Source of the DNA: an uncultured virus (IMG/VR IMGVR_UViG_3300020576_002679) | Lineage: Duplodnaviria; Heunggongvirae; Uroviricota; Caudoviricetes | Strand: one strand, 5' to 3' | DNA: 20,000 nt | IMG/VR virus record: IMGVR_UViG_3300020576_002679 | In this document: in pieces, positions 436 to 20,000 of the stretch | Numbering within the stretch: position 1 is the first letter of the stretch | How the letters are laid out: each line of letters begins with the position of its first letter | Position numbers and translations under genes: made by a program | The notes under the pieces: model-generated | The model's database searches: none | What the model was told of the DNA's origin: nothing | Seen by the model: the letters and a program-made list of their open reading frames with translations, nothing else

Positions 436-1269
436 TTAAAATCCTCCTTCCGGCAGTTCAGGCTTAGTAGCGCCTTTAACCGCCCACATTGCCGCAGTTT
501 CCATATCGTTCTGGGCACCGGTAAAGCCACGTTGAGCTAAACCGCTTAAAGATTGATTTGCAAAACTTACAGCAATATTGAAGCAACGCGCAGCTTCCGG
601 GTTAGTTGCGCGAGCTTCTTCCACTTCGCACACAGCCTTGAAGTCCTGACCAGTCTTTTTAGCATCCTCATCCGCTCTTCTTTCGATTTGTTGGATGAAG
701 CCCGCTGCCAGTGCCTTAAGTTCATTTACCTTCGCATGGCCGCCCGGATTGAACGAAATACCTACACGATATTCGCCTAAAGTCAATTTTCTAGGCAATA
801 AACCAGTTCCACTTTTAGGGTCCACTTCAGGCTCAGGCTGTTTATCACCTGCAAATACCTCCTCCTTTGCAACTTCTTCTACCAATTCTACCTTAGCAGC
901 CTTTAACTCTTCTTCGGTTTTATCCTTCAAAGCATCCACTACCGCGCAGAATAAGGCATCTTTCTTCTGCTGAAACACCGGCAATTCTTCGAACGGAACG
1001 ATACAAGGGTGCGTTTTTGCATCGGCATCCTTTGTTTCTCCGTAAACCCAACCGGCATCTACTTTGTCCTTCATCCAAGCATTGTGCTGTGCATCTTTGC
1101 CGGCTTCAGGGTTATCTAAACGGAACTCAACGCCCTTGATAGCGCTTTCACGCTGCCATTCTTCGGCTTCGTCCCAATCCTTTTGTGATGTGTCACCGTT
1201 GGCTTCACACCACGCTTTGTTTGCCTGATGGCAAACGATGGCGATTAATACTACCATTTCTTTGTTCAT
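436..1269 (-). CDS. RyR (ryanodine receptor repeat) domain protein fused to a C-terminal Acb2/Tad1-like helical hairpin domain (277 aa)
   Basis: The N-half has RyR hallmarks: QHNAWMKDKVDAGWVYGETKDADAKTHPCIVPFEELPVFQQKKD. The C-half reads TLGEYRVGISFNPGG..VNELK..R..METAAMWAVKGATKP, typical of Acb2/Tad1-like hairpins. The start is moved from 1356 to the ATG at 1269 (MNKEM), which removes the overlap with the upstream gene and follows an A/T-rich leader. Confidence 0.8.
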   Translation of the reverse strand: MNKEMVVLIAIVCHQANKAWCEANGDTSQKDWDEAEEWQRESAIKGVEFRLDNPEAGKDAQHNAWMKDKVDAGWVYGETKDADAKTHPCIVPFEELPVFQQKKDALFCAVVDALKDKTEEELKAAKVELVEEVAKEEVFAGDKQPEPEVDPKSGTGLLPRKLTLGEYRVGISFNPGGHAKVNELKALAAGFIQQIERRADEDAKKTGQDFKAVCEVEEARATNPEAARCFNIAVSFANQSLSGLAQRGFTGAQNDMETAAMWAVKGATKPELPEGGF

Positions 1270-1297
1270 GATATAATTGATTTGGTTAAAAAAACTA

Positions 1298-1942
1298 CTA
1301 AGTGAGCGAATCCAGGTGCCGGTAAATCCAACCCATTTCAGTATGACCGTTGCCATGCCATAACGCAGGAACGGTTTTATGAACGGTATTGATTATTGCG
1401 GAACCCTTAATTTGGAAATCGCTTTCAGGGCAAAATGCTATCGTTTGAAACAAACTGCAGCGGTAATCTAGTCTAATCGCGTTATCTTCTGCCTCCCGAT
1501 TTAGAAACCGGTCAGTTAAATAAACTTGATCGTTCAACTCATTTGTAGGAGGGTTTTTCTCATACATATCAATAAACGCCTGTATCTCTCCTCCCCATCC
1601 ACCACCGTTTACGAATCTCCATGGTGAATCATACTTAGGATATAAAGGTTCTTTATCTGCATGAGGATAACATGCGCGCTCCGCGGAGAATATCAAACCA
1701 TCAAAAAAATAGTCCGGCTGCTCCAACATAGCCACTGTGTCCCAAGCATCCGTATAAAGGAAATGAGAGTATTCGCGCTTAATACATGCTAGATGCTTAT
1801 ACGTTTCGTGTATCTTGCTGAGAAACCCATACCAAGGATGAACTATTATCTCATAATCCCACCCGAAAAAACCGAGCGACTTTTCCAGTTTATCACACTT
1901 ACCTCTATTGTCGGTAGTAGTTATTAGCTTCAACTTCTTCAT
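1298..1942 (-). CDS. PLOD/LH3-type glycosyltransferase domain protein (GT-A fold, like the N-terminal GT domain of procollagen lysyl hydroxylase)
   Basis: Ordered motifs FLYTDAWD, IFSAERACYP, RFVNGGGWGG, NDQVYLT, LDYRCSLFQT, WHGNG match the PLOD GT pattern (F.D.YD, FSAE..CWP, LNSG.FIG, DDQ, LD....FQ, HGNG). Confidence 0.8.
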   Translation of the reverse strand: MKKLKLITTTDNRGKCDKLEKSLGFFGWDYEIIVHPWYGFLSKIHETYKHLACIKREYSHFLYTDAWDTVAMLEQPDYFFDGLIFSAERACYPHADKEPLYPKYDSPWRFVNGGGWGGEIQAFIDMYEKNPPTNELNDQVYLTDRFLNREAEDNAIRLDYRCSLFQTIAFCPESDFQIKGSAIINTVHKTVPALWHGNGHTEMGWIYRHLDSLT

Positions 1943-2673
1943 AGCTTCTGATAGATTCTGTTATGAACTACGTTTCCTACAAATTTGTAATCGCCCGAAT
2001 CAACTAGCGGGACCATTATTTCAAGAGTTGCGGCAGTGCAGGCCGCAATACCCTGAAAGAAACCATACGGCATCCTCATATCTGCGCAAGCATCATCTAA
2101 CACCAAAAAACCATTGGCGTTCAATATCGGCATGTAATGTTTCATATCACTAATTACAGCATCGTAAGTATGGTCCCCATCAATATAGAGAATATCCACC
2201 TTCAATTTTTGCGCCTCTACGATAATAGAAGGTAACATAGAAGACCCGTGAAGAATGTTGTAATCCTTCTCAATTCCGAAATGGTCGTGCAGAAGCGCGA
2301 TATCTGCCGCATAATCCGACTCCCAATTATCACCGGAAGTATCAAGAGGGGTTACACCGTATCGAATTACCGTCTTCCCCTGCATATCAGCTATCAGGCG
2401 AATCAATCCAAGTATTTGCCCGCGGAATACACCAATCTCCATAAAAGAGAATGTTTGCGGCATTTCTTGTATAATTAACCACCACATCCAAAGGAAAGAA
2501 CGCTCTCCAAATCCAAAAATCTTTTGTGGAGTATCGTTAGCGCCCTCCACAAAATCACGGTAAGCCTTTAGCTTAGGTGAATTGTTTACCAGTGAATCAA
2601 ATTGCTCCTTCACTGCATTGTGAAATTCGGGCGTATCAGTCCAGTTGTTTTGAAGTTCTACTAGATTTTGCAT
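1939..2673 (-). CDS. class I SAM-dependent methyltransferase (Methyltransf_24-like, probable sugar/small-molecule O-methyltransferase)
   Basis: FMEIGVFRGQ (SAM motif I), ILYIDGDHTYDAVISD, GFLVLDD; ATGA overlap with the downstream gene. Confidence 0.85.
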   Translation of the reverse strand: MQNLVELQNNWTDTPEFHNAVKEQFDSLVNNSPKLKAYRDFVEGANDTPQKIFGFGERSFLWMWWLIIQEMPQTFSFMEIGVFRGQILGLIRLIADMQGKTVIRYGVTPLDTSGDNWESDYAADIALLHDHFGIEKDYNILHGSSMLPSIIVEAQKLKVDILYIDGDHTYDAVISDMKHYMPILNANGFLVLDDACADMRMPYGFFQGIAACTAATLEIMVPLVDSGDYKFVGNVVHNRIYQKL

Positions 2674-3482
2674 GTATTTAGATTAAGGTCAATAAAAGGG
2701 TTATAATAAAGAGGTTCAGTTCCGTTGTAATAGCCATCACGAAGTTTGGCAAATGCCTCTCCGCTGCGCGATGCCTCATGCTGTTTCCAGTCCATGTATT
2801 TAGTTCCGCCCGGATCAATGTGAGAAATATCCACTCCGCACAGGAAAGCATTTTTAAAGCCTGCTACACGGCTACGGCAGGAAATATCTACATCGTCATA
2901 CCCATACAGTCCAGGCTGACGAAGATAGCCCACTTGGTCGAGCAGGGCGCTATTAAACATGGTGCACGTTCCCATGATATCCTCCGTTTGCTCCACAATC
3001 AACCATTTTTCACCGGGCTTGTGTGGAAGCATTACCAGTTTCGAACGGAAGAAGGAAGTTTCATGGTCGGGGAATTGTTGCAGGTCACGTCTTTTCAACC
3101 CTAGCACTCCTATAGCAGGGTCACGCTCTAGCGCATCCACCATATCATCCACCCAACTGTTAGGATAGTGAACAATAACATCGTTGTCAATCTTGATAAC
3201 GTGCTGACCGGGCTTACGGTACATGTTTATTCCCTGATTGATAGCGTAAGCAGTTCCTTTGTTATCTGTGTTAGAGATAACAGCAACATTCTCATTAGTA
3301 TTACAGAATCTATAGATAGCACTAACAGTTTCCTTACAAGAGCCATTATCTATAATCACAACTTTGTGATGTAGTAGTTGCTTCTGCAGTGTTCCGTAAA
3401 GCGTAGCAATAGTTAAATCAGTTCTGCCACTTCCTTCTAGGTCATGCACAGCCATACAAATCAATACTTCTTTCATATTCAA
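2661..3482 (-). CDS. family 2 glycosyltransferase (GT-A)
   Basis: VVIIDNGS, NKGTAYAINQG, DxD motif KIDND, GTCTMF..LLDQVGYL, YGYDDVDISCR..AG. Confidence 0.88.
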   Translation of the reverse strand: MNMKEVLICMAVHDLEGSGRTDLTIATLYGTLQKQLLHHKVVIIDNGSCKETVSAIYRFCNTNENVAVISNTDNKGTAYAINQGINMYRKPGQHVIKIDNDVIVHYPNSWVDDMVDALERDPAIGVLGLKRRDLQQFPDHETSFFRSKLVMLPHKPGEKWLIVEQTEDIMGTCTMFNSALLDQVGYLRQPGLYGYDDVDISCRSRVAGFKNAFLCGVDISHIDPGGTKYMDWKQHEASRSGEAFAKLRDGYYNGTEPLYYNPFIDLNLNTCKI

Positions 3483-4031: not shown

Positions 4032-4691
4032 TTACCAAATGATTTTAATGAATAATGATTGATTGAATTCTTGTTCACTTACTGCAATTAAGTCCCCGGA
4101 GGCACCCTGATACGCCCGCTTCAGTAATATATTCCCGCTGCCCTCTAGCTTCGCATACACCTTATACACCTTTGTGTAAACACTACCTTCCGCCCTAGCT
4201 GCCACGCTATCGCCCGCCTCCGCCTCTTTATAGCTGATAAGCTGTCCGTCCTTGAACTGCATAGCCATCTTCCTAGCTGTAGCGTCTGCCAGTTCATTAA
4301 ACGGGTTACCGGCATGGCCTACTATATACTTGAATTTAGGCTTTAGCTTCATACCTAACACAAATATCTGTTTGAGTAGAGATAAGTTAGCCCACCCTTC
4401 GCAGCCCTTCCAATCTTTTTTCCCCATCACCCACGTTCTTTCAATATACTCTAGCGCCTGATGAGAATCAACATGGAATATGATATCTGTAGGCGTATTC
4501 TTTTGCTCATCTGCCCAACGCAATGCCTCCAATATTGCCATTACCTCCATCTGTAAAGCGGAAGTGTGACAAGCTCCACCGGAGCGAATAACTGTGTTTT
4601 GAGAAATGGCTACTTCATTAGTAGCTACAAAAGCCCATCCACCGGGTCCACCAGGGTTAACTAAACAGGAACCGTCTGTATAAAATCTCAT
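4032..4691 (-). CDS. rnhA: ribonuclease HI with a C-terminal extension
   Basis: FYTDGSC..NPGGPGGWA, QMEVMAILEAL, HVDS, GHAGNPFNELADATA: all four DEDD catalytic residues and the His are present. Confidence 0.9.
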   Translation of the reverse strand: MRFYTDGSCLVNPGGPGGWAFVATNEVAISQNTVIRSGGACHTSALQMEVMAILEALRWADEQKNTPTDIIFHVDSHQALEYIERTWVMGKKDWKGCEGWANLSLLKQIFVLGMKLKPKFKYIVGHAGNPFNELADATARKMAMQFKDGQLISYKEAEAGDSVAARAEGSVYTKVYKVYAKLEGSGNILLKRAYQGASGDLIAVSEQEFNQSLFIKIIW

Positions 4692-4936
4692 TTTGTAGAC
4701 TTTTTTCTTTTGCTTTTCTGCTCCGATACCTCATCTAAACTTTGACAAAGGTCACTGTAAGACTCTGCTTTCTGATTCAAGATGATAACCTTAATGCCAT
4801 AAACATAACCGTAATCAAGAAACCCGCCACTAACGGCCTTGTCAATCTGACTGCGCTTCCGCTTTACAGCATCCGCAAACCCCTGAACTAAAATAACAGG
4901 TATGTTGGTAGTTACCTTTACTTTAACCTCAGACAT
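4688..4936 (-). CDS. small basic hypothetical protein, possibly DNA-binding
   Basis: 82 aa; FADAVKRKRSQIDKAVSGG resembles a short helix-turn-helix; basic tail; overlaps both neighbours. Confidence 0.55.
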   Translation of the reverse strand: MSEVKVKVTTNIPVILVQGFADAVKRKRSQIDKAVSGGFLDYGYVYGIKVIILNQKAESYSDLCQSLDEVSEQKSKRKKSTK

Positions 4937-7001
4937 CGCTATCGTTTATAATTACCGGTAATCTGTAATAGCTATTACCCTCAATATGAAATCTTGTTTC
5001 TTCTTCCTCACATTTAATACTGTTAGAAGCACCTAGCATCCAAAAACAGTTTCCGGCATAATGCTTTTTCTGTCCTGCATCTATCACTAATCCAACGGAC
5101 TCATAACCCTCAAGAATTTTAATATAGCATGACCCCCACTCTATAACGAGTTTTTGCATTATCGTTTCAGTAATGGCAAAATCAGGAATACATAGTAGCA
5201 ACGCAATTCCATCAGGATTTTCACCGCACCAAGTAAACATATACTTCTGTGCCTTATCTACGGCAGTTCCCAAGGCAGCATATTCTTCTACCCGGTTAAA
5301 GAATGAATCTTTAGGGATGATATTACCTACCGTATCTTTTGGAGTAAAGCAGCCTATCGCTGTTTCTGCTTCCGGTAACAGACCTGACATGGCAAGCATA
5401 TTGAGCGCCATTTGAGTATTCTCATTTTTCAAGTTACCCGAAACAAACACACCTATCTTTCTCATAGGGAAGAACTTTTTAGTATCGGGTGCGTTCACTT
5501 CCTTACGGCTAATTTCATAAACCTTCGCACCTGCTTTACCTACCCACATTTCAGCCTCATAGCGATTGTCACGCTTTAAACTGAGGATAGGAGGAAGGAA
5601 TTTTATATAGTTAGTACGGAACCAAAAGAAGTTTCCCGAGAAATGGTCCTCCCATGTGTTTTGAGCCAAAAGCCAGTTACAGCCGGCTAGCTCATAGCCT
5701 GCATCTAGCGCGCAGATGCTTTTCTTCCACAGGCGCAGATTGTAATGATTAAGATAGTCCCGCCAGTTCTTACAGCTATCGCGCTGCTTCGTTACTCCCT
5801 TAGTATGGAAGTAAAACCCGTAAAACTCCTTTTCCGTTTTATCGGCATCCGCTTTTATTAAGTCCAGTGCAGGGAACTCAAACACCTTTGCATCGGTAGT
5901 ATAATAAACTACTTCTACCTTTTTATAGGAACGCATCAATTTCCGAAAACTATCTAGCTCCACCGCGTTACCAACAAACGAAACTTTAATAAGCTCTAGC
6001 CTGTCATACAGGCCCGAGTTTGATATGATAGCCATTTGCTCACAAACTACGTCCCCCCAATTATTAGCAGCCATTACATGCCAGTAGCCCACTACCTTAA
6101 TATCCTTAGATGGAATACGGTTTTTAGCATCGCTAGTAAGAACAAAGTCAGCAGCAATACCGAAAGCACGTCTGTAATACGCAACCAGTTTGTTATAGAA
6201 ACGAGCTAATCGGTAATCGTTTTCATTACCGAGCTCCGAGCCCGCAAGAGAGAACGCAGCATAACCATGGTATAGAGTTTCCTCCGTCCAGTTCTGATGG
6301 TGCATGGTTATAAAAACAGGGTAAAATACCTTTGCCGGTTCAGGTGCAGGATATAGCCCCTCAATAGCACAGGCCATATTTATACAGAACTCTTCTGTCT
6401 TCGAACGGTGATGCTCTACATACCCGGTGAAGGTTTTATCTTTCCATACCCGCAAAGCAGTTGAAAACAAACGTTCAGCCGCTACCGACTTTCTAAAGAA
6501 CAGAAAAGAAGCATTAATCTGAGGAAGAAGATTGTTGGCCGGCACCATAAAGTGATTCATAGCAGGTTCAGGCTTTCCGTCCTTTACCCACCATGTATAT
6601 TTATCTGATGATTTGCCGCCTCTTTCATAGAAGCCCGTTGTCATGGCTAGAAAATCCTTTCCACCCTCACACTTATTAAACAGTGCAGCAGCGCCTTTAC
6701 CCGGAAGTATTAATGTATCGGCATCCAGTAAAATAGTTTCCTCAAATGGCGATAATTCATACGCAAGAAGTTTGGCGTACATTGCCCGGTGAAGATTTAC
6801 ATGGTAATCTTTTAACCGCTCACTGATATCCCTGCAATGTGTGAAGAAAGAGGAGCGAATAGATACTGATGCGGGTAAGCCCTGATGAAGGAGCATAACA
6901 TCAATATCGTTTGATTTGTTGGCGCGTATAGATAGGCACAGATTCAATGCCATTTCGCAGTATTTATCTCCTAGCGCAACTATTACTATTCCTTTGCTCA
7001 T
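4929..7001 (-). CDS. multidomain glycosyltransferase-like protein (690 aa): N-terminal GT-A (GT8-like) domain, a central HTKG/HFSGNFFW domain and a degenerate repeat of it
   Basis: AKLLAYELSPFEETILLDADT (DxD) and QINASFLFF; then YFHTKGVT..WRDYL..HFSGNFFW..RYEAEMWVG; then a third segment with HYAGNCFW. Confidence 0.75.
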   Translation of the reverse strand: MSKGIVIVALGDKYCEMALNLCLSIRANKSNDIDVMLLHQGLPASVSIRSSFFTHCRDISERLKDYHVNLHRAMYAKLLAYELSPFEETILLDADTLILPGKGAAALFNKCEGGKDFLAMTTGFYERGGKSSDKYTWWVKDGKPEPAMNHFMVPANNLLPQINASFLFFRKSVAAERLFSTALRVWKDKTFTGYVEHHRSKTEEFCINMACAIEGLYPAPEPAKVFYPVFITMHHQNWTEETLYHGYAAFSLAGSELGNENDYRLARFYNKLVAYYRRAFGIAADFVLTSDAKNRIPSKDIKVVGYWHVMAANNWGDVVCEQMAIISNSGLYDRLELIKVSFVGNAVELDSFRKLMRSYKKVEVVYYTTDAKVFEFPALDLIKADADKTEKEFYGFYFHTKGVTKQRDSCKNWRDYLNHYNLRLWKKSICALDAGYELAGCNWLLAQNTWEDHFSGNFFWFRTNYIKFLPPILSLKRDNRYEAEMWVGKAGAKVYEISRKEVNAPDTKKFFPMRKIGVFVSGNLKNENTQMALNMLAMSGLLPEAETAIGCFTPKDTVGNIIPKDSFFNRVEEYAALGTAVDKAQKYMFTWCGENPDGIALLLCIPDFAITETIMQKLVIEWGSCYIKILEGYESVGLVIDAGQKKHYAGNCFWMLGASNSIKCEEEETRFHIEGNSYYRLPVIINDSDV

Positions 7002-10051: not shown

Positions 10052-11215
10052 TTAATCGGTGAATATAAGATTTACCCAAACTTGAATACCATTAGGATTC
10101 GTTGCCCATGTAGGCGTTACCCATTTCATTTCAATTTTATCCCCTGCGGTTACTGCGGTGGATAGCGAATTATTATAGTATTCTAATGAAGTTCCGAACG
10201 CTTGCGCTGTGCTGTTTAAGGTTATGTCGGTTGTGTTATTCACCCTCAAATACATCGTGCTAGTTTCGGCCGATGCGTTGGATATAGTATTTTTAGTGCT
10301 GATACACACCGCAATTAAATTACCTGTAAATGGAATTATAAACTGCCTTACACCTGCCCCTATACCCATTGGCGCGCCTTGAATAGTTCCCCAATAATAA
10401 GTTGTAGCATCGTTAGGGGAAAATGCAGTATGTCCCGCGAATGAAAGCGTATATCTGTTACCTGTCGCCCCCGTTGCGCCAGTTGCGCCAGTTGCCCCTG
10501 TTGAGCCAACCGCGCCAGTAGCGCCTATACTTCCTGTCGCACCTGTCGCGCCCGTATTTCCTGTAACACCCTGCGCTCCTGTTGCCCCTGTAGCACCAGT
10601 ATTTCCCGTTGCGCCTGTGACACCACTTACCGTTTGCCATGTTGCAGTTCCCGAACCATCAGTTGACATTACTTGATTTGGCGTTCCGTCAGATATAGGT
10701 AGATAATAGCTATTTGAAACCTTAACTGAACCGCCCGCAATTTTTATATTTCCCGTAACGGCATTTGTAGATAAATTTATTTCTTCTGCTAACAGAGTAA
10801 ATGGCATTGTGTTAGGAGTAGTATTGTGTAAGTCGTTACCGGTAGAATCCCAAAAAGAAATATCACCACCTGTTGGACCCGTTACACCTGTATTCCCTGT
10901 TATTCCCTGTGCGCCAGTTGCACCGGTACCGCCTGTGCTCCCTGTTGAACCCGTTGCACCTTTAGCCCCAGTTGCGCCAGTTGTACCCTGCGACCCAAGC
11001 GGGTACCAAGCTCCTTCATCGTAAAACCACGCTCCTAAAGGTAATCTGTTTGCCGGTGTAGGCACACCTTTGTAATTTCTTACTATCACTAAATTATTAG
11101 GAGTGCCCGGAGTAGCTTGAGTGATATTGCCATGAGTAACCAATACTGTTCCACTTTGAGCGAACCCAAAATAAATCAGACAGGCAAATAAGACGAGTAG
11201 TATATTTTTTTTCAT
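10052..11215 (-). CDS. collagen-like fibre protein with N-terminal signal peptide and beta-rich C-terminal head
   Basis: Likely start 11215 (TAATG coupling with the upstream stop), [20 protein letters not shown]; two G-X-Y runs dominated by G-X-T; C-terminal ~135 aa beta-rich domain. Confidence 0.85.
10463..10624 (-). repeat. collagen-like repeat block 2, 18 G-X-Y triplets (9-nt period)
   Basis: [54 protein letters not shown]. Confidence 0.9.
10871..10996 (-). repeat. collagen-like repeat block 1, 14 G-X-Y triplets
   Basis: [42 protein letters not shown]. Confidence 0.9.
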
Positions 11216-12459
11216 TAATTCGCAAGAGTCCAATCTGCGCTACTGCTAGTTCCTGTAGCAAAGTAAAGTTTTTTCGTATTTGTATCAATATACATATCTC
11301 CTATTTTGCCAGGTGTGCTTGATGGCGAAACAGTTCCACTACTTATAGCAGGTGCGGCATTTGCCGCCCAACTTGCCAAACCTGTAGCGTCAGAAGTTAA
11401 AACGTAGCCGCTCGATTGCGTTCCGTCAGATACCTTCAATGATCCATGAACGTGAAGCATCGCATCTGATGGAGTAGGTATATCTGTAGACCTTAATGCG
11501 CTACCGATAGCCATATTCCCGTTTTTTATAATTAAGAGATTTGACTGTTCGCTATCTATACTAAGTGTAATTCCACCATAGTTACCCATAGATAAGTACA
11601 AATCTCTATTATCCCATCCACCGGAATAATAAGGTGACCTATTGGCTACTGCGGCAGGTCCTATAGCGATTTCGTGATAACTGTGAGTAGTATCGCCATA
11701 CCCTCCCAATATTAAATTATGGGAAATATTATTATATGGATTAGCCGCAACACCCCTAATTGCGCACTTAAACGATGCCAAAATGCTATTATCCGAACCG
11801 GTATCTATATGGCAGGAATCGGAGCATATAATCGAATTACTCGTATAACTACTAGCCGCAATTATCGTATCTCCATTTCCAACAATAACCGCATTTTTTG
11901 CAGAAACAACAAATTGATTCTGCATTTTTATCCTTACGTTATTAGCGCTTTTCATGTCAATGTTTCCACCTGCGTATGTTTGAAATAATATATGCTTAAA
12001 CCTAGTAAAAATACTGCTATCGCTTCTACCTAATATCGATAGATTTCCGATGTATGTATAGTTACCCAATCCGTAAGATGCACCATAAAGAGAAGCCGCA
12101 AAGGTGGTGCTCAATACCGCTCCATTTGTGCCAGTATAACTATCCGTCCGACTTCCATCTGCATTTATGGTTATCCTTGTTATGCCATTTGTCTTTATCA
12201 TTAGCTTGTTACTATCCGAAGTTCCCAAGTAATTTGAACCGGTAGTGCCTGCATTTCCAGTTAACCCCCAACCGCTACCGGCACCAACCGACTGCCAACT
12301 AAGACCACCAACTCCGTTTGTTTGCAAGAACTCTCCTGCATGGCCGTTAGAATTAGGAAAGCAAGCTCTACATGGATTAGCGGGTCCACCACCACCTCCC
12401 TGCGCTGAAACCATGGAAAAAAGAATAAATAAAAACAGAATAGATAGTGTTTTTCTCAT
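11215..12459 (-). CDS. fibre/adhesin-like beta-repeat protein with N-terminal signal peptide
   Basis: [51 protein letters not shown] repeats; [47 protein letters not shown]. These motifs recur in phage fibres and Bacteroidota surface proteins. Confidence 0.75.
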
Positions 12460-12975: not shown

Positions 12976-13007
12976 CAAATGTATATTATTGAATTTACTT
13001 ACGCAAA
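12976..13007 (-). promoter_or_regulatory. Bacteroidota primary-sigma promoter for the fibre/lysis block
   Basis: Minus strand TTTG (13004-13007) - 20 nt - TACATTTG (12976-12983): exact consensus. Confidence 0.7.
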
Positions 13008-16000
13008 CGGTTGAGATAAATCAATGTTTGGTTAGTTATTACCCCGCGATGAATGTAATTCTTTATCATCTGCTGTTGAGTAATGGCATCCTTACCATCT
13101 ATGTTTTTAAAAATTAACCGAGCACGTTCTTCATTATCCTTCCCTTTCAAAACCTCCTCTTCGGCAAGCTGCTGTATTTCTTCACGATTTATAGTTACTG
13201 CCTGTTCCGCTTTTGCGCGCAATTCCTCTAACTTTCCCTCCTTTCCTTTCTTTTTCTGTTCCATTCCGCGTCTTCCTCGTAGAGTAGGAACATACTTCTC
13301 ATCGCCCTGAAAGTCTTTTACTATTTCCCGGAACTCCTCATATTTTGTATTATCGGCCAGTGTGTTTACCTCATCAATATCTTTTTTGGTTTCCACCATC
13401 CAGTCTAGCACTTTTGCATAGCGCGCCTCATTAGCCGAATAGTATTTATCGGTAACCGCTTTCATTGCCTTATCCTTTTGCTCCTGCGAACGCTTTTCAT
13501 CCTGCACGATTTCAGAAATATCACGATGATATTGGTCCAGGGTATTATTTAGTTGAAATTTCAAATTTTCAAACTCCCGGTCACGAGTTTTCATCCGCTT
13601 CTCTACTGCGCGCCCAACTTCCTTATCATCAAAGCGCTGCACCTTAACCAATAAGTTAAGAATAGCATCCGAAACGGTTTTATATCTGCCATACCGATCA
13701 GGCTCTCCGCGGGAAGCGTTCCACAAATCATCAATCAGCGCAACGTATTGGCCGCCATAAGCTCTAGTAAGATAAGAGGCAATATTTTTCAACCGGTCAT
13801 TATCATCTAGGTTTACATCATAGCCCCACTTGCCACTTGACGGGTCCTGAACAGAACGCATGCGGAAATCCTGATCGTCCATAGCCTGAAACAACGGACC
13901 GAGAATAGGGTCACTATACATGAATTTAAGTTTGCGAATACCATTGTCTGTCTTCTCCCCCTTGAACGGATAAGGAGATGCCTTGTTTATCCACTGGATA
14001 TAAGACTGATAATCGTCACCTTGATCCCAAATGTATAAAGGCTCAACAAAGCGGGCGATATCTAACCGCTTACCATTTACAACCATACTCAACGGCATAT
14101 CTCCCCACTTCCATTGCTTGTCTGCATTATCGTAATGATAGGTAGGTGCGGAACGAGGCACAGACGTAGCAAAGTCCTTCCAAACTCCCTTTTCTTCCTT
14201 ACTCAATTCTTCGTTATCCTCATCACCACTCATTAACGCAAACGTCAACCACGAAAGGAAGCTGTACCAAGCTATTGTATACAAAGGACGCTTTACTACA
14301 TTGTTCTTTTCAATTCTAATTGCCTGTGCCACGAATCGGGCAAACATATTACCGATAAGCGGAGTCTTAGCAGCTAAGTCCCAATAGCGCCCTACTTCTT
14401 CACTTGTTTGGAAGCTGTCGCGTATTTGCCCTATTGCTTCTTCCGGTGTGTAACCATTCAAATCAGTAAGAACCATGTAAGCCTGAATTTTAGCCACATC
14501 ATCCACTCCGCTGTAAAACCCTTTCGCTGAATTGAGGAACCCTTTTTTACTAGGAGCTTCGCCCTGCAGGTTAGCAAGTGAAATATTATTGCCTATTAGT
14601 CCATTGCGTAACATAGCAAGATAAGCAGGACCGCCATTGCGTATTTCCATTACTGCCTTTGGCAGCATCCCCATAAATGCTACCGGGTTTATGCCGGCCT
14701 TGAAAGCCCAAACGTAGTTCATAGCAACGTTACCCGCAATTACACCCGGATTGAGCACGGTAAAATATGCCCGATACATTCTGCGAAGCCATAAACTATC
14801 GTAAGCCTGTGCAACATCATTGAACTTCTGCATGAGGTAAGTGTTATACATATACCCCTTTAAATCTTCTGCATAATGTTTTGCTACCCACTTATTAGAA
14901 AGTAAGCCGTAACCAAATCCGGGCATTCTTACATAGCCGTGGTCTATTTTAGCTGATGGAGCAGTTCCGAACTTCGCCATAAATTGAGCAGAAGTAAGAA
15001 CTCCTTTACCCGCCTGTTCCGCAAATAATTCACGGCTATACTCGAAGATGCTTAAATTCTTCATAGTCTGTGCGTACCGCTTTACAGTAAGATACACAGG
15101 GTCCTTCACTGCCTCTAGCACCTTATCCATACTTACATCAGTTCTACCTTTGTAAATACCCATCTCCGCCATTATCTGCTGTGTAAGAGCTTTAGCGTCC
15201 TCATCTTCTTCCGTCCAGTTGTATGAACGGGCGATGTAATCTGCTTTACCTGTCACCGGGTTTCTGAATTTCTCCCAAGTATCTTGATTGATACCCATTG
15301 TTCCGCCACTGGCAATCCCCATCATACGGTTAGTATCATGCGTTACAGTATTAAGTGAAGTAAGCAAACTCTTTAATGTGATTTCTTCCGGTGTAAGCCC
15401 TACGTTATTAAGCGTATCAATGTCAGTCAACACATTAGCTAAATCTGCCTGCTGTGCTGTAGTAGACAAGCCTAACCTGCGCGCATCATATATTTCTTTA
15501 TACAAACGTGCCTTGTCTGCCGCTAGTCCTTCATAGGCCGCCTGTTGAGGAGTGCCAAAGTGTAGATGCAATTCAGGGTCCATAACAGAAATTACCTTCT
15601 CCAAGCTACCCGGATTGTTTCCTACAATTTCACGAAGCGCTTTACCCATACGATTAGCTGCTTCCCCTCCAGTTGCTATTCCGCCTTTCATTTCACCGCG
15701 GCTCTTCACATAATCATTATTATCAATTACCCCGCGAAGCCATCCTACTGCAAGGTCCGATAATTCACGTAATGCCATGCTGCGCGATGTAGCCGCTTCC
15801 TGAACTCGTTTAGCTAACCATTCCTCAAACCCGCCTACTATTTTATCAGAAAGATAATCCTGCACCGGTATTTGCACTAACCCTAAATCAATTCGGTTAG
15901 GAGCATTGAATAGCCTGCTAGATACCGTGCCGGCTGCTTTTATTGCACCAGGTGGAATAAATGCCATTTGCGTCATTCCATCTACAACTTTCTTAGCAAC

Positions 16001-19000
16001 CTGTTTAGGTTTTAATTCTGCCTGCTTCAGTAAAAATCCCTCATGCACTTTGAGCGCCTTTGCCAAATCTTTACTTAACACCTCAATATTCTTATTCAGT
16101 TCGGCCAGTTGCTTTTCCTGATTATCGTCTTTAAATAAGTCTTCCAGTTTGCCGCCAAACATCACATTATCTTCATTGACAATGAGAGAACCCATTCCAC
16201 TTCCCTTAACCAAAAAATCTATGTTGCTTTCATGCGCTAGCTTTACTGGAAAGTTTTCTATACCGGTTTTATTGCTTTTAATATCAATGATATCAAGCAA
16301 TCCGTAGGGAAGCGTTCCGTTAATTGGCTCACCATCTGTAACAATTACATATCTACTAACCCCATACTTTGAGCGATTAGTAACTAAGCGATTTACAAAA
16401 TCAGGCTTATTAAGCTCCCCATTTGATATAGGCTCAAATCCATGAATATGATTTGCCGCACTTAGATAAACAATGGCCGTTTTAAGTCCCTTCTGTTTTA
16501 AGATAGCTTCTGCAACTAAAAACATATTTCGTTCAGCATCGCCCGCAGAACCTATTTTCGCGCGCTCATAATGGAAACTCTCCACCGGGTTCTTGTGCTC
16601 TCTTTCTTCTACATAACCCATACCAGTGATAAATGAAAATTTATCTGTATCAATTACTACATGCCCTCCGAATTTTATTCCACTTCCCCTAACCATGTCT
16701 GCCGTTCTTTGCGTAAATAATATATCGGCCTGACTTGCCTTATGATTACCGGAGGGGTGATTATGAACGACCATAATCTCATCCGCCCCCATAGCAAAAG
16801 TAGTTTCGACTATTGATTTTTGACTAGGAAATATTGTCATTTCGGGTAAGCCCAATGTTTGAAAAGAGGAATGAACCACTTCCCCATTTCTTAAATATAC
16901 CACCGCAGCAATCTCCATGTGCGGGTTTCTGATAGCAGTAAAGATATCAGCCAATGTTTCCGGGCTATCAATCAAAGCTCCGTTAATGTTGAACGACATT
17001 GTTTTTTCTAGTTGCTGCTTAACGCTATTCTCTCGAATAGAAAGAGGCTTCTTAACTAGAGAACCGTTTTCATACACCTCTGCTACATATACCTCACCTG
17101 CAGGTGAACGGTCAGGCAGACTTGCAATAGCTTCCTTTAACTGCTTTTCACTACCGTAAGCAATATCAACATGCTCCGCCTTTATCTTCTTCTTTGATGG
17201 CGCGCGCTTGATTTTTTGTTTTACCTTTTCGGGAACTTCATACCCGGCAGAAGAAAATAAATCAGCCTGATGCTCGGCAGTTATACTACCTACCTCTGCC
17301 ACATATTTTTTAGCCAAATCAACAGTTTCAAAGTCACCAACCTTTTCTTTATCTGCATACAAAGTGTATCTCTTACCGGCATCGCGCTCAACTGTTATTC
17401 GGTAATTAACTCCGTCTTTGGTTGTTTCTGCTAAAGGGTGCTCAAAACTAAACATATCTGTACCCTTCAATCTTCCTTTTTCATCTATAAGCTCAGGGAA
17501 GTTAAATATTGATTCTTCTACAATATCATCATCTAATGCGGCATCTTCATTTTTTTCAGGTGCCTTATTAATTACCTCCTCTTTCATTTTCTCCTCCACT
17601 TCTGCTACTTCTGTACGCAGGCGGGAGAGTTTATCGTTTTGAGTAAAAGGCTTTTTAAGTTCCGATTCGATAATCGGTATTCTTTCCTCTAGTTTCTTGA
17701 TACGATTATGAATATCATTCGCCTCAGTAGCGATGAACTCTAACCGGTTACGCAAGGAATTTATAAAACCTACACCCGCTGTTATAGGGCGAGAAAGATA
17801 ATGGTCATAATATTTTTCAGGGAAATGCGGATCTATAGCATAGCTTACATATACGTCCTCCGGCTTAACGGCTATACCCGAAGGTCTATCACCACCTATA
17901 ATACCTGAGTCAAACAATATCGGCACACCATTCACTTCTATTTGCTCCAAATGCTTCTTACCATCCTGAACAGACTTAATAATAAGCCCCTGAATAACGC
18001 TATCCACTACCGTAGCAAACTTTTCAGTGTGCGTAGTTTCTCCACGTTTCAAAGTAGTTATGTTGCCATCAGGTATCTTTTCATTCACATCTTTTACTAC
18101 CTGATTAATTTCAGGAACGCGGGCCTTTAACGATTCCAATACCATTTTATCATTCTTCAAATCTCCATTAAGCTGTATTAGTCTGCGCTCATGGTTTTTA
18201 GAAGACGTTTCCAGTTTACGGAGCTCGTAAGTTTTAGCATGCCATATTACAGCGTATTGACTTCCCGATAACGCGGCCATGCGCTGCTCAAAGCTCATAT
18301 CTGCCGGGTTGTCCTCGTCTGCCTCATCATTCATTTCACGGTCTAGTCCTTCACCTTTCATCATTTGATTGATGAATTTCTGTTTGATAGCCAACCGGCC
18401 GTAAGCAGTAGCATCAAGAGTTTTAGCCACACCGTAAGTAACTATATCAAAATCTTTATCCAGGTATGCCAGTTCATTACCCTGACGCAATCCCCGTCCG
18501 TTTCTTTGTTCAAAGTCCATCGGGCGCGGAGGTGCATCTACGTGATGTAGCGCTACCATCTTATCCTGAACATTCACACCAACACCCATCTTCTCTGTAG
18601 AACCTAGCATAACCCTCACCCTGCCTTGTTGCATCATTTCAAATACACGGGCGCGCTTCGCATCGGCTGACTTACCGGTACCTAAGTCATGGATGATTAC
18701 TATTTCATTTTCAGGTATGCCGCCTGCAATCAACTTCTTTTTAATATCGTTATACAAGTTAAATCGCGATTTCCCAAATGCCGGATTAGGTATTGTTTCT
18801 TCTTCATCCAACCATGCACCTTTAGGCGCAGGCGATTGATACATATCCGAGAATATTAATTGCGTTCCCTTGATATCGGTAGACTCATGGTAACGTTCTA
18901 ATACTTGCTCAACTACTTTATTTGTCTTGCTTCCCGGATCATCGTCTGCTTCAGGGTTCAGTAAACGTAAATCAATAGCCGCCTGCTTCGCCCGGTTAAA

Positions 19001-20000
19001 AATCAGCAGGGGAAAGTGACGGTATTTTCTTTTCTCTTTACCGGTCAGCTTCTCAAACCATTCCATTTCTGCGCGAAACTCATCCATCTGCTGTTTGAGC
19101 GCTTCCGATTGAGGAATAATTATATTGGTAAAGCCTCTGCGAGATAAGAACTCTACTGCTCCTTCGTTTGGAGAAGTATTAGTAAAGTAATCAACTAGCG
19201 CAGAACGTTCAGGCTTTCCTCCTAGCAGTTTAACCGCATCCGATATCGCTTTCCTTGTATCTTCCGTTACTGATATATTCTCTAACGGAATACCATTGAA
19301 ATAAGGAGTACCGGCAACATAATTAACGTTAGTAGGTTTAAGTTTGGGAATAGTTTTATCTTCCTTAAACTCGGGTATATCCTCTGTCAACACCACGTCA
19401 GTTTTACTTCTAAACGCTGTCAGTAATTCAGGTGCATTGATGTAAGACTTAAACCTTTCAACCATTTTAAACTTACCCGCAGCGGTAAATTCTAGTGACG
19501 GCTCTACTGCTCCAAACGTAGAAGCGAACTGATCGAAGTTAGATATCTTGTATTTTTCAAGAATATCAGGCTGTATGAACTTCATCATGGTCCATACTTC
19601 CGCCATCGTATTGGTGATAGGCGTACCAGTAGCAAACGTTACGTTCTTCCCTTGGTTAAGCTCCTGAATCCATTGTGCTTTCATATACGTAGAGAAAGCC
19701 CGCTGACTTCTACCGGTATCAACTCCCTTGATATTACTCATCTTCGTAAAGAATCCGAGTTTTTTATTTGCATGCGCCTCGTCATAAAACATGGCATCTA
19801 TACCCATCTTCTCAAAGGTCATTACTTCATCTGTCTTCCGGTCACTTTGTTTACGGATGCTGCGCTCAATAGCCAACTGCTGACGGGCAATATCCTTTAT
19901 CTTCTGACTGGAGTTTTCAATTTCCCCCTTCATTTTAGAAACGATATCAGATATGTTTTGCGCCTTTTCTTCTCTAGTTAAGCCGGTGCGTTCATTAGCA
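12995..20000 (-). CDS. giant DarB-like polyvalent protein (5'-truncated, >2330 aa): SF2/SNF2-type helicase, RadC-type JAB domain(s), helical C-terminal region like ejected internal virion proteins
   Basis: The frame stays open to the window edge (ANERTGL..VSKM). Helicase motifs FYDEAH (19772-19783), FATGTPITNT, QLIFSD, MGVGVNVQ, EQRNGRGLRQGN; Walker A must lie beyond the window. JAB motif VHNHPSG..ASQAD..GHVVID near 16765. The C-terminal part has GYTPEEA..PLIGNMFARF and PILGPLFQAMDDQDF. Confidence 0.9.
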   Translation of the reverse strand, partial: ANERTGLTREEKAQNISDIVSKMKGEIENSSQKIKDIARQQLAIERSIRKQSDRKTDEVMTFEKMGIDAMFYDEAHANKKLGFFTKMSNIKGVDTGRSQRAFSTYMKAQWIQELNQGKNVTFATGTPITNTMAEVWTMMKFIQPDILEKYKISNFDQFASTFGAVEPSLEFTAAGKFKMVERFKSYINAPELLTAFRSKTDVVLTEDIPEFKEDKTIPKLKPTNVNYVAGTPYFNGIPLENISVTEDTRKAISDAVKLLGGKPERSALVDYFTNTSPNEGAVEFLSRRGFTNIIIPQSEALKQQMDEFRAEMEWFEKLTGKEKRKYRHFPLLIFNRAKQAAIDLRLLNPEADDDPGSKTNKVVEQVLERYHESTDIKGTQLIFSDMYQSPAPKGAWLDEEETIPNPAFGKSRFNLYNDIKKKLIAGGIPENEIVIIHDLGTGKSADAKRARVFEMMQQGRVRVMLGSTEKMGVGVNVQDKMVALHHVDAPPRPMDFEQRNGRGLRQGNELAYLDKDFDIVTYGVAKTLDATAYGRLAIKQKFINQMMKGEGLDREMNDEADEDNPADMSFEQRMAALSGSQYAVIWHAKTYELRKLETSSKNHERRLIQLNGDLKNDKMVLESLKARVPEINQVVKDVNEKIPDGNITTLKRGETTHTEKFATVVDSVIQGLIIKSVQDGKKHLEQIEVNGVPILFDSGIIGGDRPSGIAVKPEDVYVSYAIDPHFPEKYYDHYLSRPITAGVGFINSLRNRLEFIATEANDIHNRIKKLEERIPIIESELKKPFTQNDKLSRLRTEVAEVEEKMKEEVINKAPEKNEDAALDDDIVEESIFNFPELIDEKGRLKGTDMFSFEHPLAETTKDGVNYRITVERDAGKRYTLYADKEKVGDFETVDLAKKYVAEVGSITAEHQADLFSSAGYEVPEKVKQKIKRAPSKKKIKAEHVDIAYGSEKQLKEAIASLPDRSPAGEVYVAEVYENGSLVKKPLSIRENSVKQQLEKTMSFNINGALIDSPETLADIFTAIRNPHMEIAAVVYLRNGEVVHSSFQTLGLPEMTIFPSQKSIVETTFAMGADEIMVVHNHPSGNHKASQADILFTQRTADMVRGSGIKFGGHVVIDTDKFSFITGMGYVEEREHKNPVESFHYERAKIGSAGDAERNMFLVAEAILKQKGLKTAIVYLSAANHIHGFEPISNGELNKPDFVNRLVTNRSKYGVSRYVIVTDGEPINGTLPYGLLDIIDIKSNKTGIENFPVKLAHESNIDFLVKGSGMGSLIVNEDNVMFGGKLEDLFKDDNQEKQLAELNKNIEVLSKDLAKALKVHEGFLLKQAELKPKQVAKKVVDGMTQMAFIPPGAIKAAGTVSSRLFNAPNRIDLGLVQIPVQDYLSDKIVGGFEEWLAKRVQEAATSRSMALRELSDLAVGWLRGVIDNNDYVKSRGEMKGGIATGGEAANRMGKALREIVGNNPGSLEKVISVMDPELHLHFGTPQQAAYEGLAADKARLYKEIYDARRLGLSTTAQQADLANVLTDIDTLNNVGLTPEEITLKSLLTSLNTVTHDTNRMMGIASGGTMGINQDTWEKFRNPVTGKADYIARSYNWTEEDEDAKALTQQIMAEMGIYKGRTDVSMDKVLEAVKDPVYLTVKRYAQTMKNLSIFEYSRELFAEQAGKGVLTSAQFMAKFGTAPSAKIDHGYVRMPGFGYGLLSNKWVAKHYAEDLKGYMYNTYLMQKFNDVAQAYDSLWLRRMYRAYFTVLNPGVIAGNVAMNYVWAFKAGINPVAFMGMLPKAVMEIRNGGPAYLAMLRNGLIGNNISLANLQGEAPSKKGFLNSAKGFYSGVDDVAKIQAYMVLTDLNGYTPEEAIGQIRDSFQTSEEVGRYWDLAAKTPLIGNMFARFVAQAIRIEKNNVVKRPLYTIAWYSFLSWLTFALMSGDEDNEELSKEEKGVWKDFATSVPRSAPTYHYDNADKQWKWGDMPLSMVVNGKRLDIARFVEPLYIWDQGDDYQSYIQWINKASPYPFKGEKTDNGIRKLKFMYSDPILGPLFQAMDDQDFRMRSVQDPSSGKWGYDVNLDDNDRLKNIASYLTRAYGGQYVALIDDLWNASRGEPDRYGRYKTVSDAILNLLVKVQRFDDKEVGRAVEKRMKTRDREFENLKFQLNNTLDQYHRDISEIVQDEKRSQEQKDKAMKAVTDKYYSANEARYAKVLDWMVETKKDIDEVNTLADNTKYEEFREIVKDFQGDEKYVPTLRGRRGMEQKKKGKEGKLEELRAKAEQAVTINREEIQQLAEEEVLKGKDNEERARLIFKNIDGKDAITQQQMIKNYIHRGVITNQTLIYLNRLRK

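Follow-up and report, generated by a model that had tools for sequence, protein, structure and literature searches.

The window analyzed here, a 20,000-nucleotide stretch of DNA from an uncultured virus of the Caudoviricetes (IMG/VR record IMGVR_UViG_3300020576_002679), encodes a giant polyvalent protein in which a RadC-type JAB domain with an intact metal site is followed, in the same chain, by a second RadC-type domain whose site is dead. We are highly confident of this structural description. The two copies occur together almost without exception, in or beside proteins that probably enter a new cell with DNA, and hundreds of phage polyvalent proteins of the ejection type carry the pair, as do conjugative elements. 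The mechanism that we tentatively favor, at somewhat less than an even chance, is that of a zinc hydrolase that works on the incoming DNA or at it, often docked on the sliding clamp, with the second copy as a built-in second subunit. Residue numbers below start at the first codon in the window, the giant open reading frame (ORF) being open at position 19999.

12995..19999, minus strand: giant polyvalent DarB-like protein, probably ejected from the virion (2,334 amino acids visible; ORF open at the window's right edge)
16592..16981, minus strand: copy 1, a RadC-type JAB domain with an intact metal site (Pfam RadC, E = 1.4e-14, 54.5 bits against a cut-off of 22.1)
16274..16561, minus strand: copy 2, a dead RadC-type JAB domain without metal ligands and with the S-x-x-D helix deleted, keeping D1236 of the RadC 'LLD' strand (profile and fold match)

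An intact RadC domain and its dead paralogue

The first-pass annotation of this DNA had described tandem active and inactive RadC-type JAB domains within the giant protein, and all eight peptides that it quoted fall where it placed them, in one minus-strand frame. Those of copy 1 are LIDSPETLA (16975-16949), PHMEIAAVVYL (16924-16892), the HNHPSG block (16789-16724) and GHVVID (16666-16649), and those of copy 2 run from KIGSAGDA (16558-16535) through LLDIIDI (16300-16280). The complete E..HxH..S..D site attributed to copy 1, which corresponds to the JAMM motif (PMC300881), is present as E1029, H1079, H1081, S1089 and D1092, with the exact spacing H-x-H-x7-S-x2-D, in a domain that Pfam assigns to RadC above its cut-off. 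R1024, within R-x-P-x-x-E, and G1112 are marks of its subfamily. Across tandem first copies, all five metal-site residues were kept in 184 of 185, and the Arg of R-x-P ahead of the catalytic Glu had a frequency of 0.91. The best structural match of the tandem model, and of copy 1, was RadC from Chlorobium tepidum (PDB 2QLC; Z = 15.5, root-mean-square deviation [rmsd] 2.5, 120 residues aligned; Foldseek E = 4.4e-7). Copy 1 is predicted to be a catalytic, zinc-binding domain.

Copy 2 eludes single-sequence comparison: BLAST against copy 1 gave E = 0.62, RadC was not matched at E 0.5 in Pfam, and neither Pfam nor PHROGs returned a meaningful match. Profiles of 73 rows (72 relatives aligned across both halves, plus the query) were then informative, with hhalign matching the copy-2 profile to the copy-1 profile at 95.9% probability (E = 6.2e-9, score 46.6, 88 columns); reversing the profile lowered the score to 15.3, and none of 100 block shuffles exceeded 31.6. 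Chance resemblance is ruled out by the reversed, shuffled and decoy controls. Folded alone with AlphaFold2 (28 rows, predicted local distance difference test [pLDDT] 83.6), copy 2 is predicted to adopt a RadC/JAB fold and matches RadC 2QLC first, both in Foldseek (probability 1.00, template modeling score 0.56, E = 0.013) and in VIA-align, which over 48,161 PDB chains gave it a Z of 9.5 (rmsd 3.1, 101 residues aligned) and the runner-up 5.2. Since both copies match 2QLC before any other structure, both belong to the RadC lineage. RadC clusters at a score of 0.84 in the ESM Atlas serve as a lead only.

The first-pass description of copy 2 as the same scaffold with HNHPSG lost can be refined, as the S-x-x-D helix is lost too, leaving 22 residues where copy 1 has 40 (family medians, 29 against 38). 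HxHP occurs in none of the second copies examined, and any H-x-H in the corresponding segment in 2 of 363. The domain evolves fast, with conservation above 50% only at one Gly, one Leu, one Ala and one Asp. A recently decaying redundant copy is ruled out by its conservation as a dead domain across phyla. On its profile and predicted fold, copy 2 is a dead paralogue of the RadC lineage; profile, fold and site evidence together bear out the claim of one active and one inactive JAB domain in a single chain.

Near-obligate pairing across phages and conjugative elements

A phmmer search with the 258-amino-acid tandem against 1.84 billion representatives gave 1,547 matches at E ≤ 0.001, of which the best 150 were used; both halves aligned in 72 of these. 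The first-copy set comprised 244 domains from the best 150 proteins and 80 viral loci, 190 of them with at least 100 residues downstream. Copy 2 was found after the first copy in 146 of the 190 on the first pass and, in a partly circular figure, in 185 after iteration (reversed decoys, <10 bits). A held-out test, selected in a way that favors the G-H subfamily by design, scanned viral contigs with the copy-1 motif only. This gave 182 loci, 179 in frame; 17 already seen were removed, and 149 were unique. Copy 2, and never an active copy, follows in 113/113 domains with at least 120 residues downstream (57 by the first-pass profile; controls, ≤8 bits), the remaining 36 having too few residues to be scored, in 34 cases because the locus ended. 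Among 120 genome loci, 72 were testable and copy 2 follows in 68; the carriers include Clostridia, Treponema, Nitrosomonas, Bacteroidota, delta- and gammaproteobacteria and others.

In a quick tree search (139 columns) of 60 tandem first copies (the window's and 59 random ones from 184) and 37 solo RadCs, a single branch splits the two groups with a Shimodaira-Hasegawa-like approximate likelihood ratio test value of 90. Two single-sequence tblastn queries, limited in sensitivity, found no phage record with the whole pair among 50,697, and a similarly limited plasmid search found 1 match in 72,556, to the Nitrosomonas version. A single-sequence locus scan gave no match, and a word-index protein search aimed at longer relatives none either. 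Seven giant relatives (P0010, P0021, P0038, P0041, P0042, P0044 and P0051) carry the active domain twice, at a distance of about 350 to 1,500 residues, and in most cases each of the two has a dead partner of its own.

Arrangement of the two copies

AlphaFold2 modeling of the tandem from a 31-row alignment produced a pair of domains in which the elements follow one and the same order, the S-x-x-D helix being absent from the second (pLDDT 87.5, predicted template modeling score 0.68). The spacing between copies is narrow throughout the family (median, 73 residues; 10th to 90th percentile, 65 to 85). Where solo RadC has Asp (frequency 0.95), tandem copy 1 has Gly (0.79), and copy 2 retains the Asp (0.88; 335/363), so that the features of a homodimer look as if they were divided between two fused copies. 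Two-chain prediction of a complex between the copies scored 0.00 in two runs without controls, and it speaks neither for nor against packing. Mean-field couplings from 363 tandems recovered plausible contacts inside each domain and no coherent set between domains, at an alignment depth that was limiting.

An alternative hypothesis, which we regard as distinctly unlikely, is that the catalytic copy acts by itself, as any RadC would, and that copy 2 is a stabilizing appendage or spacer that binds no substrate. The fast evolution of copy 2 and the low-confidence linker of the tandem model would fit a spacer of this kind. However, copy 2 is kept nearly always, at narrow spacing, even in minimal stand-alone genes, and the subfamily-specific changes of copy 1 at R1024 and G1112 go along with it.

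Probable delivery with DNA and partner domains

The window's main genes share the minus strand and resemble a segment of a tailed-phage genome. Two further regions of the giant protein can be delimited.

17513..19987, minus strand: DarB-like SNF2/SF2 helicase region, residues about 5-829 (phrog_10089, E = 1.4e-156)
12995..16120, minus strand: C-terminal helical region like phage ejection or LPD38-bearing proteins, the last ~1,040 residues (ESM Atlas, lead only)

The helicase region also matches Pfam SNF2-rel_dom and Helicase_C, each below the cut-off, and corresponds to the helicase part of a DarB-like methylase-helicase dyad. The closest relative among the best 150, P0001 (4,348 amino acids), has an Eco57I-type methylase, SNF2 and the same RadC pair, and the N-terminus of the window's protein, beyond the window edge, therefore probably holds a DarB-like methylase. 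The C-terminal region has no Pfam or PHROG match. In the ESM Atlas every cluster listed for it is viral (score 0.95-0.96) and LPD38 occurs in 61% of the members of one set, at a recognition value under the tool's threshold. Collagen-repeat tail-fiber-like and amidase genes come after the giant gene, which is thus encoded among virion genes. In most of 16 listed loci the gene for the giant stands last in a series of genes of one orientation, as in the ejection-protein blocks of podoviruses, whose gene layout served for comparison (ORF order only, unannotated).

Beyond the giants, Nitrosomonas and Clostridia have stand-alone genes of 320 to 450 amino acids for the live-plus-dead RadC pair, carried by conjugative or integrative elements.

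L288:5442-6560, L383:15001-16107, L282:5475-6434 and L328:5448-6428: stand-alone pair genes on Nitrosomonas and Clostridia elements

Those of Nitrosomonas come after ArdC-N/MPTase (TraC-like), which stands immediately ahead of the pair, TraF and coupling protein genes, and on plasmid NZ_CP133084.1 the pair ends a run of traJ, traI, type IV coupling protein, traF and zincin genes. Those of Clostridia adjoin relaxase, MobC, Toprim or integrase genes. The common thread of these contexts appears, from gene content, to be the entry of DNA into a new cell. The first-pass suggestion that the module is delivered at infection gains indirect support from the DarB-like helicase, the LPD38-like C-terminal third and the relatives that end virion gene blocks or lie in transfer operons. 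A further locus (L275:760-6735) encodes a protein of ~1,990 amino acids in which the RadC pair accompanies LPD16, LPD25 and a ChlI/Mg-chelatase-like AAA+ domain.

A Pfam scan of 60 of the best 150 relatives revealed LPD38 (11), ART-PolyVal (9), LPD39 (3), methylase-helicase, ddrB-ParB, InPase, PBECR and Toprim as partner domains, no ubiquitin-like (Ubl), E1, E2 or MPTase-PolyVal family, and Prok-JAB in only 4 of the 60, always weaker than RadC. Ubl, E1 and E2 families were likewise found neither in the window nor in 29 neighbor or host proteins scanned.

These data bear on the first-pass proposal that the pair is an injected deconjugase, an MPN+/MPN- pair like Rpn11/Rpn8 that would strip Ubl defense tags of type II CBASS (the anti-phage signaling system based on cyclic oligonucleotides), Bil or Bub. 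The JAMM signature of copy 1 is complete, its next structural neighbors after RadC are JAMM1 (Z = 9.1), AMSH-like Sst2 (8.4), Cap3 (7.8), a bacterial Ubl deubiquitinase (6.9) and Rpn11 (6.8), and bacterial JABs do cleave Ubl conjugates (10.1101/2024.11.21.623953). The comparison with Rpn11/Rpn8 that the annotation had called for did yield two JAB domains, but with RadC (Z = 15.5) rather than Rpn11 as the nearest structure; each copy is far nearer RadC than Cap3, BilC, Rpn11 or the JAMM peptidases. Together with the lack of Ubl, E1 and E2 in the scanned relatives, this leaves deconjugation of Cap3- or Bil-type tags poorly favored. Furthermore, Bil targets tail proteins during assembly, whereas the pair is also found on conjugative elements, which have no tail to tag, and Ubl operons are described as sparse (10.1101/2024.11.21.623953), in contrast to a module present in many phyla. 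The Acb2-like neighbor lies below its cut-off (19.5 bits against 27 in Pfam; E = 0.0012) and ~15 kb away. We therefore consider an injected deconjugase quite improbable.

Motifs flanking the pair

Three short elements lie beside the pair in the window's protein.

17255..17269, minus strand: QADLF, residues 911-915, beta-clamp-docking-like, ~95 residues ahead of copy 1; the visible protein has no other Q-x-x-[LM]-F
17150..17176, minus strand: 'AYGS' element common to many relatives, a variant of the V-x-E-x4-Y flank motif (BLAST alignments to relatives begin near residue 942)
16157..16180, minus strand: VNEDNVMF, residues 1274-1281, downstream V-x-E-x4-[YF] flank motif (motif scan)

Q-x-x-[LM]-F was found 50 to 100 residues upstream of 30/306 modules compared to 75/7,376 bins elsewhere, and its hexamer form upstream of 19/306 compared to 23/7,376. 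Among representatives at 50% identity, either form of the clamp-like motif occurred 10 to 110 residues upstream in 37/143, against 2/132 and 4/128 further upstream; clustering at 40% identity gave 14/51 against 1/45 and 1/43. The motif V-x-E-x4-[YF] is enriched on both sides of the module, with 82/306 at 50 to 100 residues upstream and 114/321 within 50 residues downstream compared to 476/7,376 bins elsewhere (6.5%), and, after 50% clustering, 37/143 upstream and 44/146 downstream compared to 7/132, 5/139 and 3/133.

This enrichment, together with the copy at residues 1274-1281 and the extended peptides that JAB grooves bind (PMC3239186), could point to a peptidase for V-x-E-x4-[YF] peptides, in which the flank motifs serve as cleavage sites or groove plugs and the enzyme frees itself or neighboring domains after entry or cuts motif-bearing host proteins. 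Elsewhere in the giants, however, the motif is at chance level, and other domain borders are therefore not marked by it. It also precedes the fold in 14/38 solo RadCs (without a control), which fits a structural strand, and in the stand-alone tandem proteins there is nothing for such an enzyme to free. For polyvalent proteins, the processing peptidase has been proposed to be a zincin-like HExxH, which is present in 34/100 proteins of at least 1,500 amino acids (shuffled mean, 2.1), although the window's protein has none along its visible length. On balance, we judge such a peptidase unlikely.

Proposed function

We propose that a single duplication probably produced the module, a predicted RadC-family zinc hydrolase joined to a non-catalytic copy of itself, and that it spread as a cassette among proteins sent with DNA into a new cell, namely phage ejection polyproteins and conjugative transfer proteins. 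Delivered together with the DNA, it would act on that DNA or on something bound to it, by nucleic-acid or nucleotide processing or by cutting a DNA-bound protein. Copy 2 would stand in for a second subunit, as a scaffold or substrate binder, and the upstream Q-x-x-L-F motif may often dock the module on the host sliding clamp. The outcome would be to help the mobile element to establish itself. Of the options offered by the first-pass annotation (deconjugation, self-processing of the polyprotein or action on nucleic acid), the last fits best. The literature predicts for RadC an action on nucleic acids and the absence of the ubiquitin-tail groove (PMC5512222, PMC3239186); a nuclease role has been argued alongside the description of inactive RadC domains in some fusobacteria (PMC3239186), and RadC is still called a putative nuclease (PMC12826799).

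Several points weigh against this mechanism. No report of a demonstrated activity for RadC was found in the open-licence PMC and bioRxiv literature; the JAB enzymes described as characterized in the sources cited here are peptidases; and a structure search with a RadC-like domain returned metalloproteases, not nucleases, in a work that found no functional study (PMC11981726). The inter-copy linker of the tandem model (model residues 144-150) has pLDDT values below 50, and the midpoint root of the tree falls inside the tandem group, so that a single origin is allowed but not demonstrated by it. Co-occurring partners are weak evidence for function, because the partner domains of polyvalent proteins are disparate by nature. 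As for the clamp, the flank motifs were found after inspection of the sequences, with five patterns tried; the beta-clamp consensus QL(S/D)LF is variable and loose (PMC9690074); the clamp-like motif also occurs just downstream in 10/143 representatives; and about three quarters of the representatives are without it.

A more specific possibility, unlikely on present evidence, is that the pseudo-dimeric RadC is a clamp-docked zinc enzyme that enters with phage or plasmid DNA and cleaves DNA adducts or host proteins bound to the DNA, perhaps at V-x-E-x4-Y peptides, thereby disarming restriction or other DNA-level defense. If so, the pair would reveal what RadC really does, and it would represent a widespread, unrecognized class of anti-defense enzymes, a weapon common to phages and conjugative elements such as plasmids.

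Irrespective of mechanism, the pair offers a handle on RadC function, in that a live and a dead copy are kept together almost only in DNA-entry proteins or operons, often with a clamp-like motif adjacent. The small stand-alone versions, one of them, WP_107787995.1, on a sequenced Nitrosomonas conjugative plasmid, should be purifiable and testable, bringing RadC function within experimental reach. In hundreds of giant phage proteins, the analysis also puts a name to a domain of ~100 residues to which Pfam and PHROGs assign nothing.

Other genes in the window

The remaining genes include glycosyltransferases and an RNase H. A 306-amino-acid ORF (436-1356, minus strand) combines a RyR-domain-like phage family (Pfam RyR, E = 1.6e-10; phrog_5154) with the Acb2/Tad1-like hairpin, with an insertion. 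The first-pass annotation had the RadC pair complement this Acb2-like sponge; we found no evidence for a functional link between the two. A glycan-modifying cluster (1298-3482 and 4929-7001, minus strand) encodes a PLOD-type glycosyltransferase, Methyltransf_24, GT2 and a 690-amino-acid mannosyltransferase-like multidomain protein, and could modify the virion or the host surface. The RNase H (4032-4691, minus strand; Pfam E = 3.5e-16) lies inside this cluster. Two tail-fiber-like genes (10052-12459, minus strand), one of them with collagen repeats, both have signal-peptide-like N-termini.

Comparison with known systems

The closest known relative is the RadC-like JAB domain itself (Pfam PF04002; PDB 2QLC), to which both copies correspond in fold (Z = 15.5 and 9.5) and copy 1 in its full metal site. 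Unlike that domain, the module is duplicated in one chain, has a dead second copy and lies in or beside entry proteins, and tandem copy 1 is set apart by R-x-P-x-x-E and by a G-H in place of the D-H of solo RadC. As a whole, the giant resembles the polyvalent proteins of the DarB-like methylase-helicase type (Iyer et al. 2017, PMC5512222) in its many domains, DarB-like SNF2 helicase, RadC and LPD38-like end. That work lists RadC as a polyvalent domain with predicted nucleic-acid or nucleotide processing; its main text places RadC only in the polyvalent proteins of conjugative elements and LPD38 only in those of phages, and mentions no second, inactive copy. In contrast, RadC and LPD38 share one chain in 11 of the 60 relatives scanned here, which places RadC in phage-type (LPD38, DarB-like) ejection proteins and extends the published picture. 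The presence of RadC in polyvalent proteins was thus known; the open-licence PMC and bioRxiv literature yielded no description of a live/dead RadC tandem, nor any of the near-obligate dead partner, of RadC in phage-type proteins or of the flanking motifs.

Cap3, BilC and BubC, described in 10.1101/2024.11.21.623953, share the zinc-site signature and overall fold with copy 1 (Z = 7.8, 6.9 and 6.1). They have one active domain each and are encoded alongside Ubl, E1 and E2 genes in operons; none of these families was seen in module proteins or their annotated neighbors.

Eukaryotic MPN domains pair an active with an inactive member, as in Rpn11/Rpn8, CSN5/CSN6 and BRCC36/Abraxas, and in this the RadC pair is like them. 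The eukaryotic pairs, however, consist of two subunits, whereas the window's pair is one chain, with Z scores of 6.8 to Rpn11 and 4.5 to 4.8 to Rpn8. Because it is of RadC lineage, the likeness is probably convergent, and, if the pseudo-dimeric reading is true, this would be a prokaryotic MPN+/MPN- pair that evolved independently of Rpn11/Rpn8.

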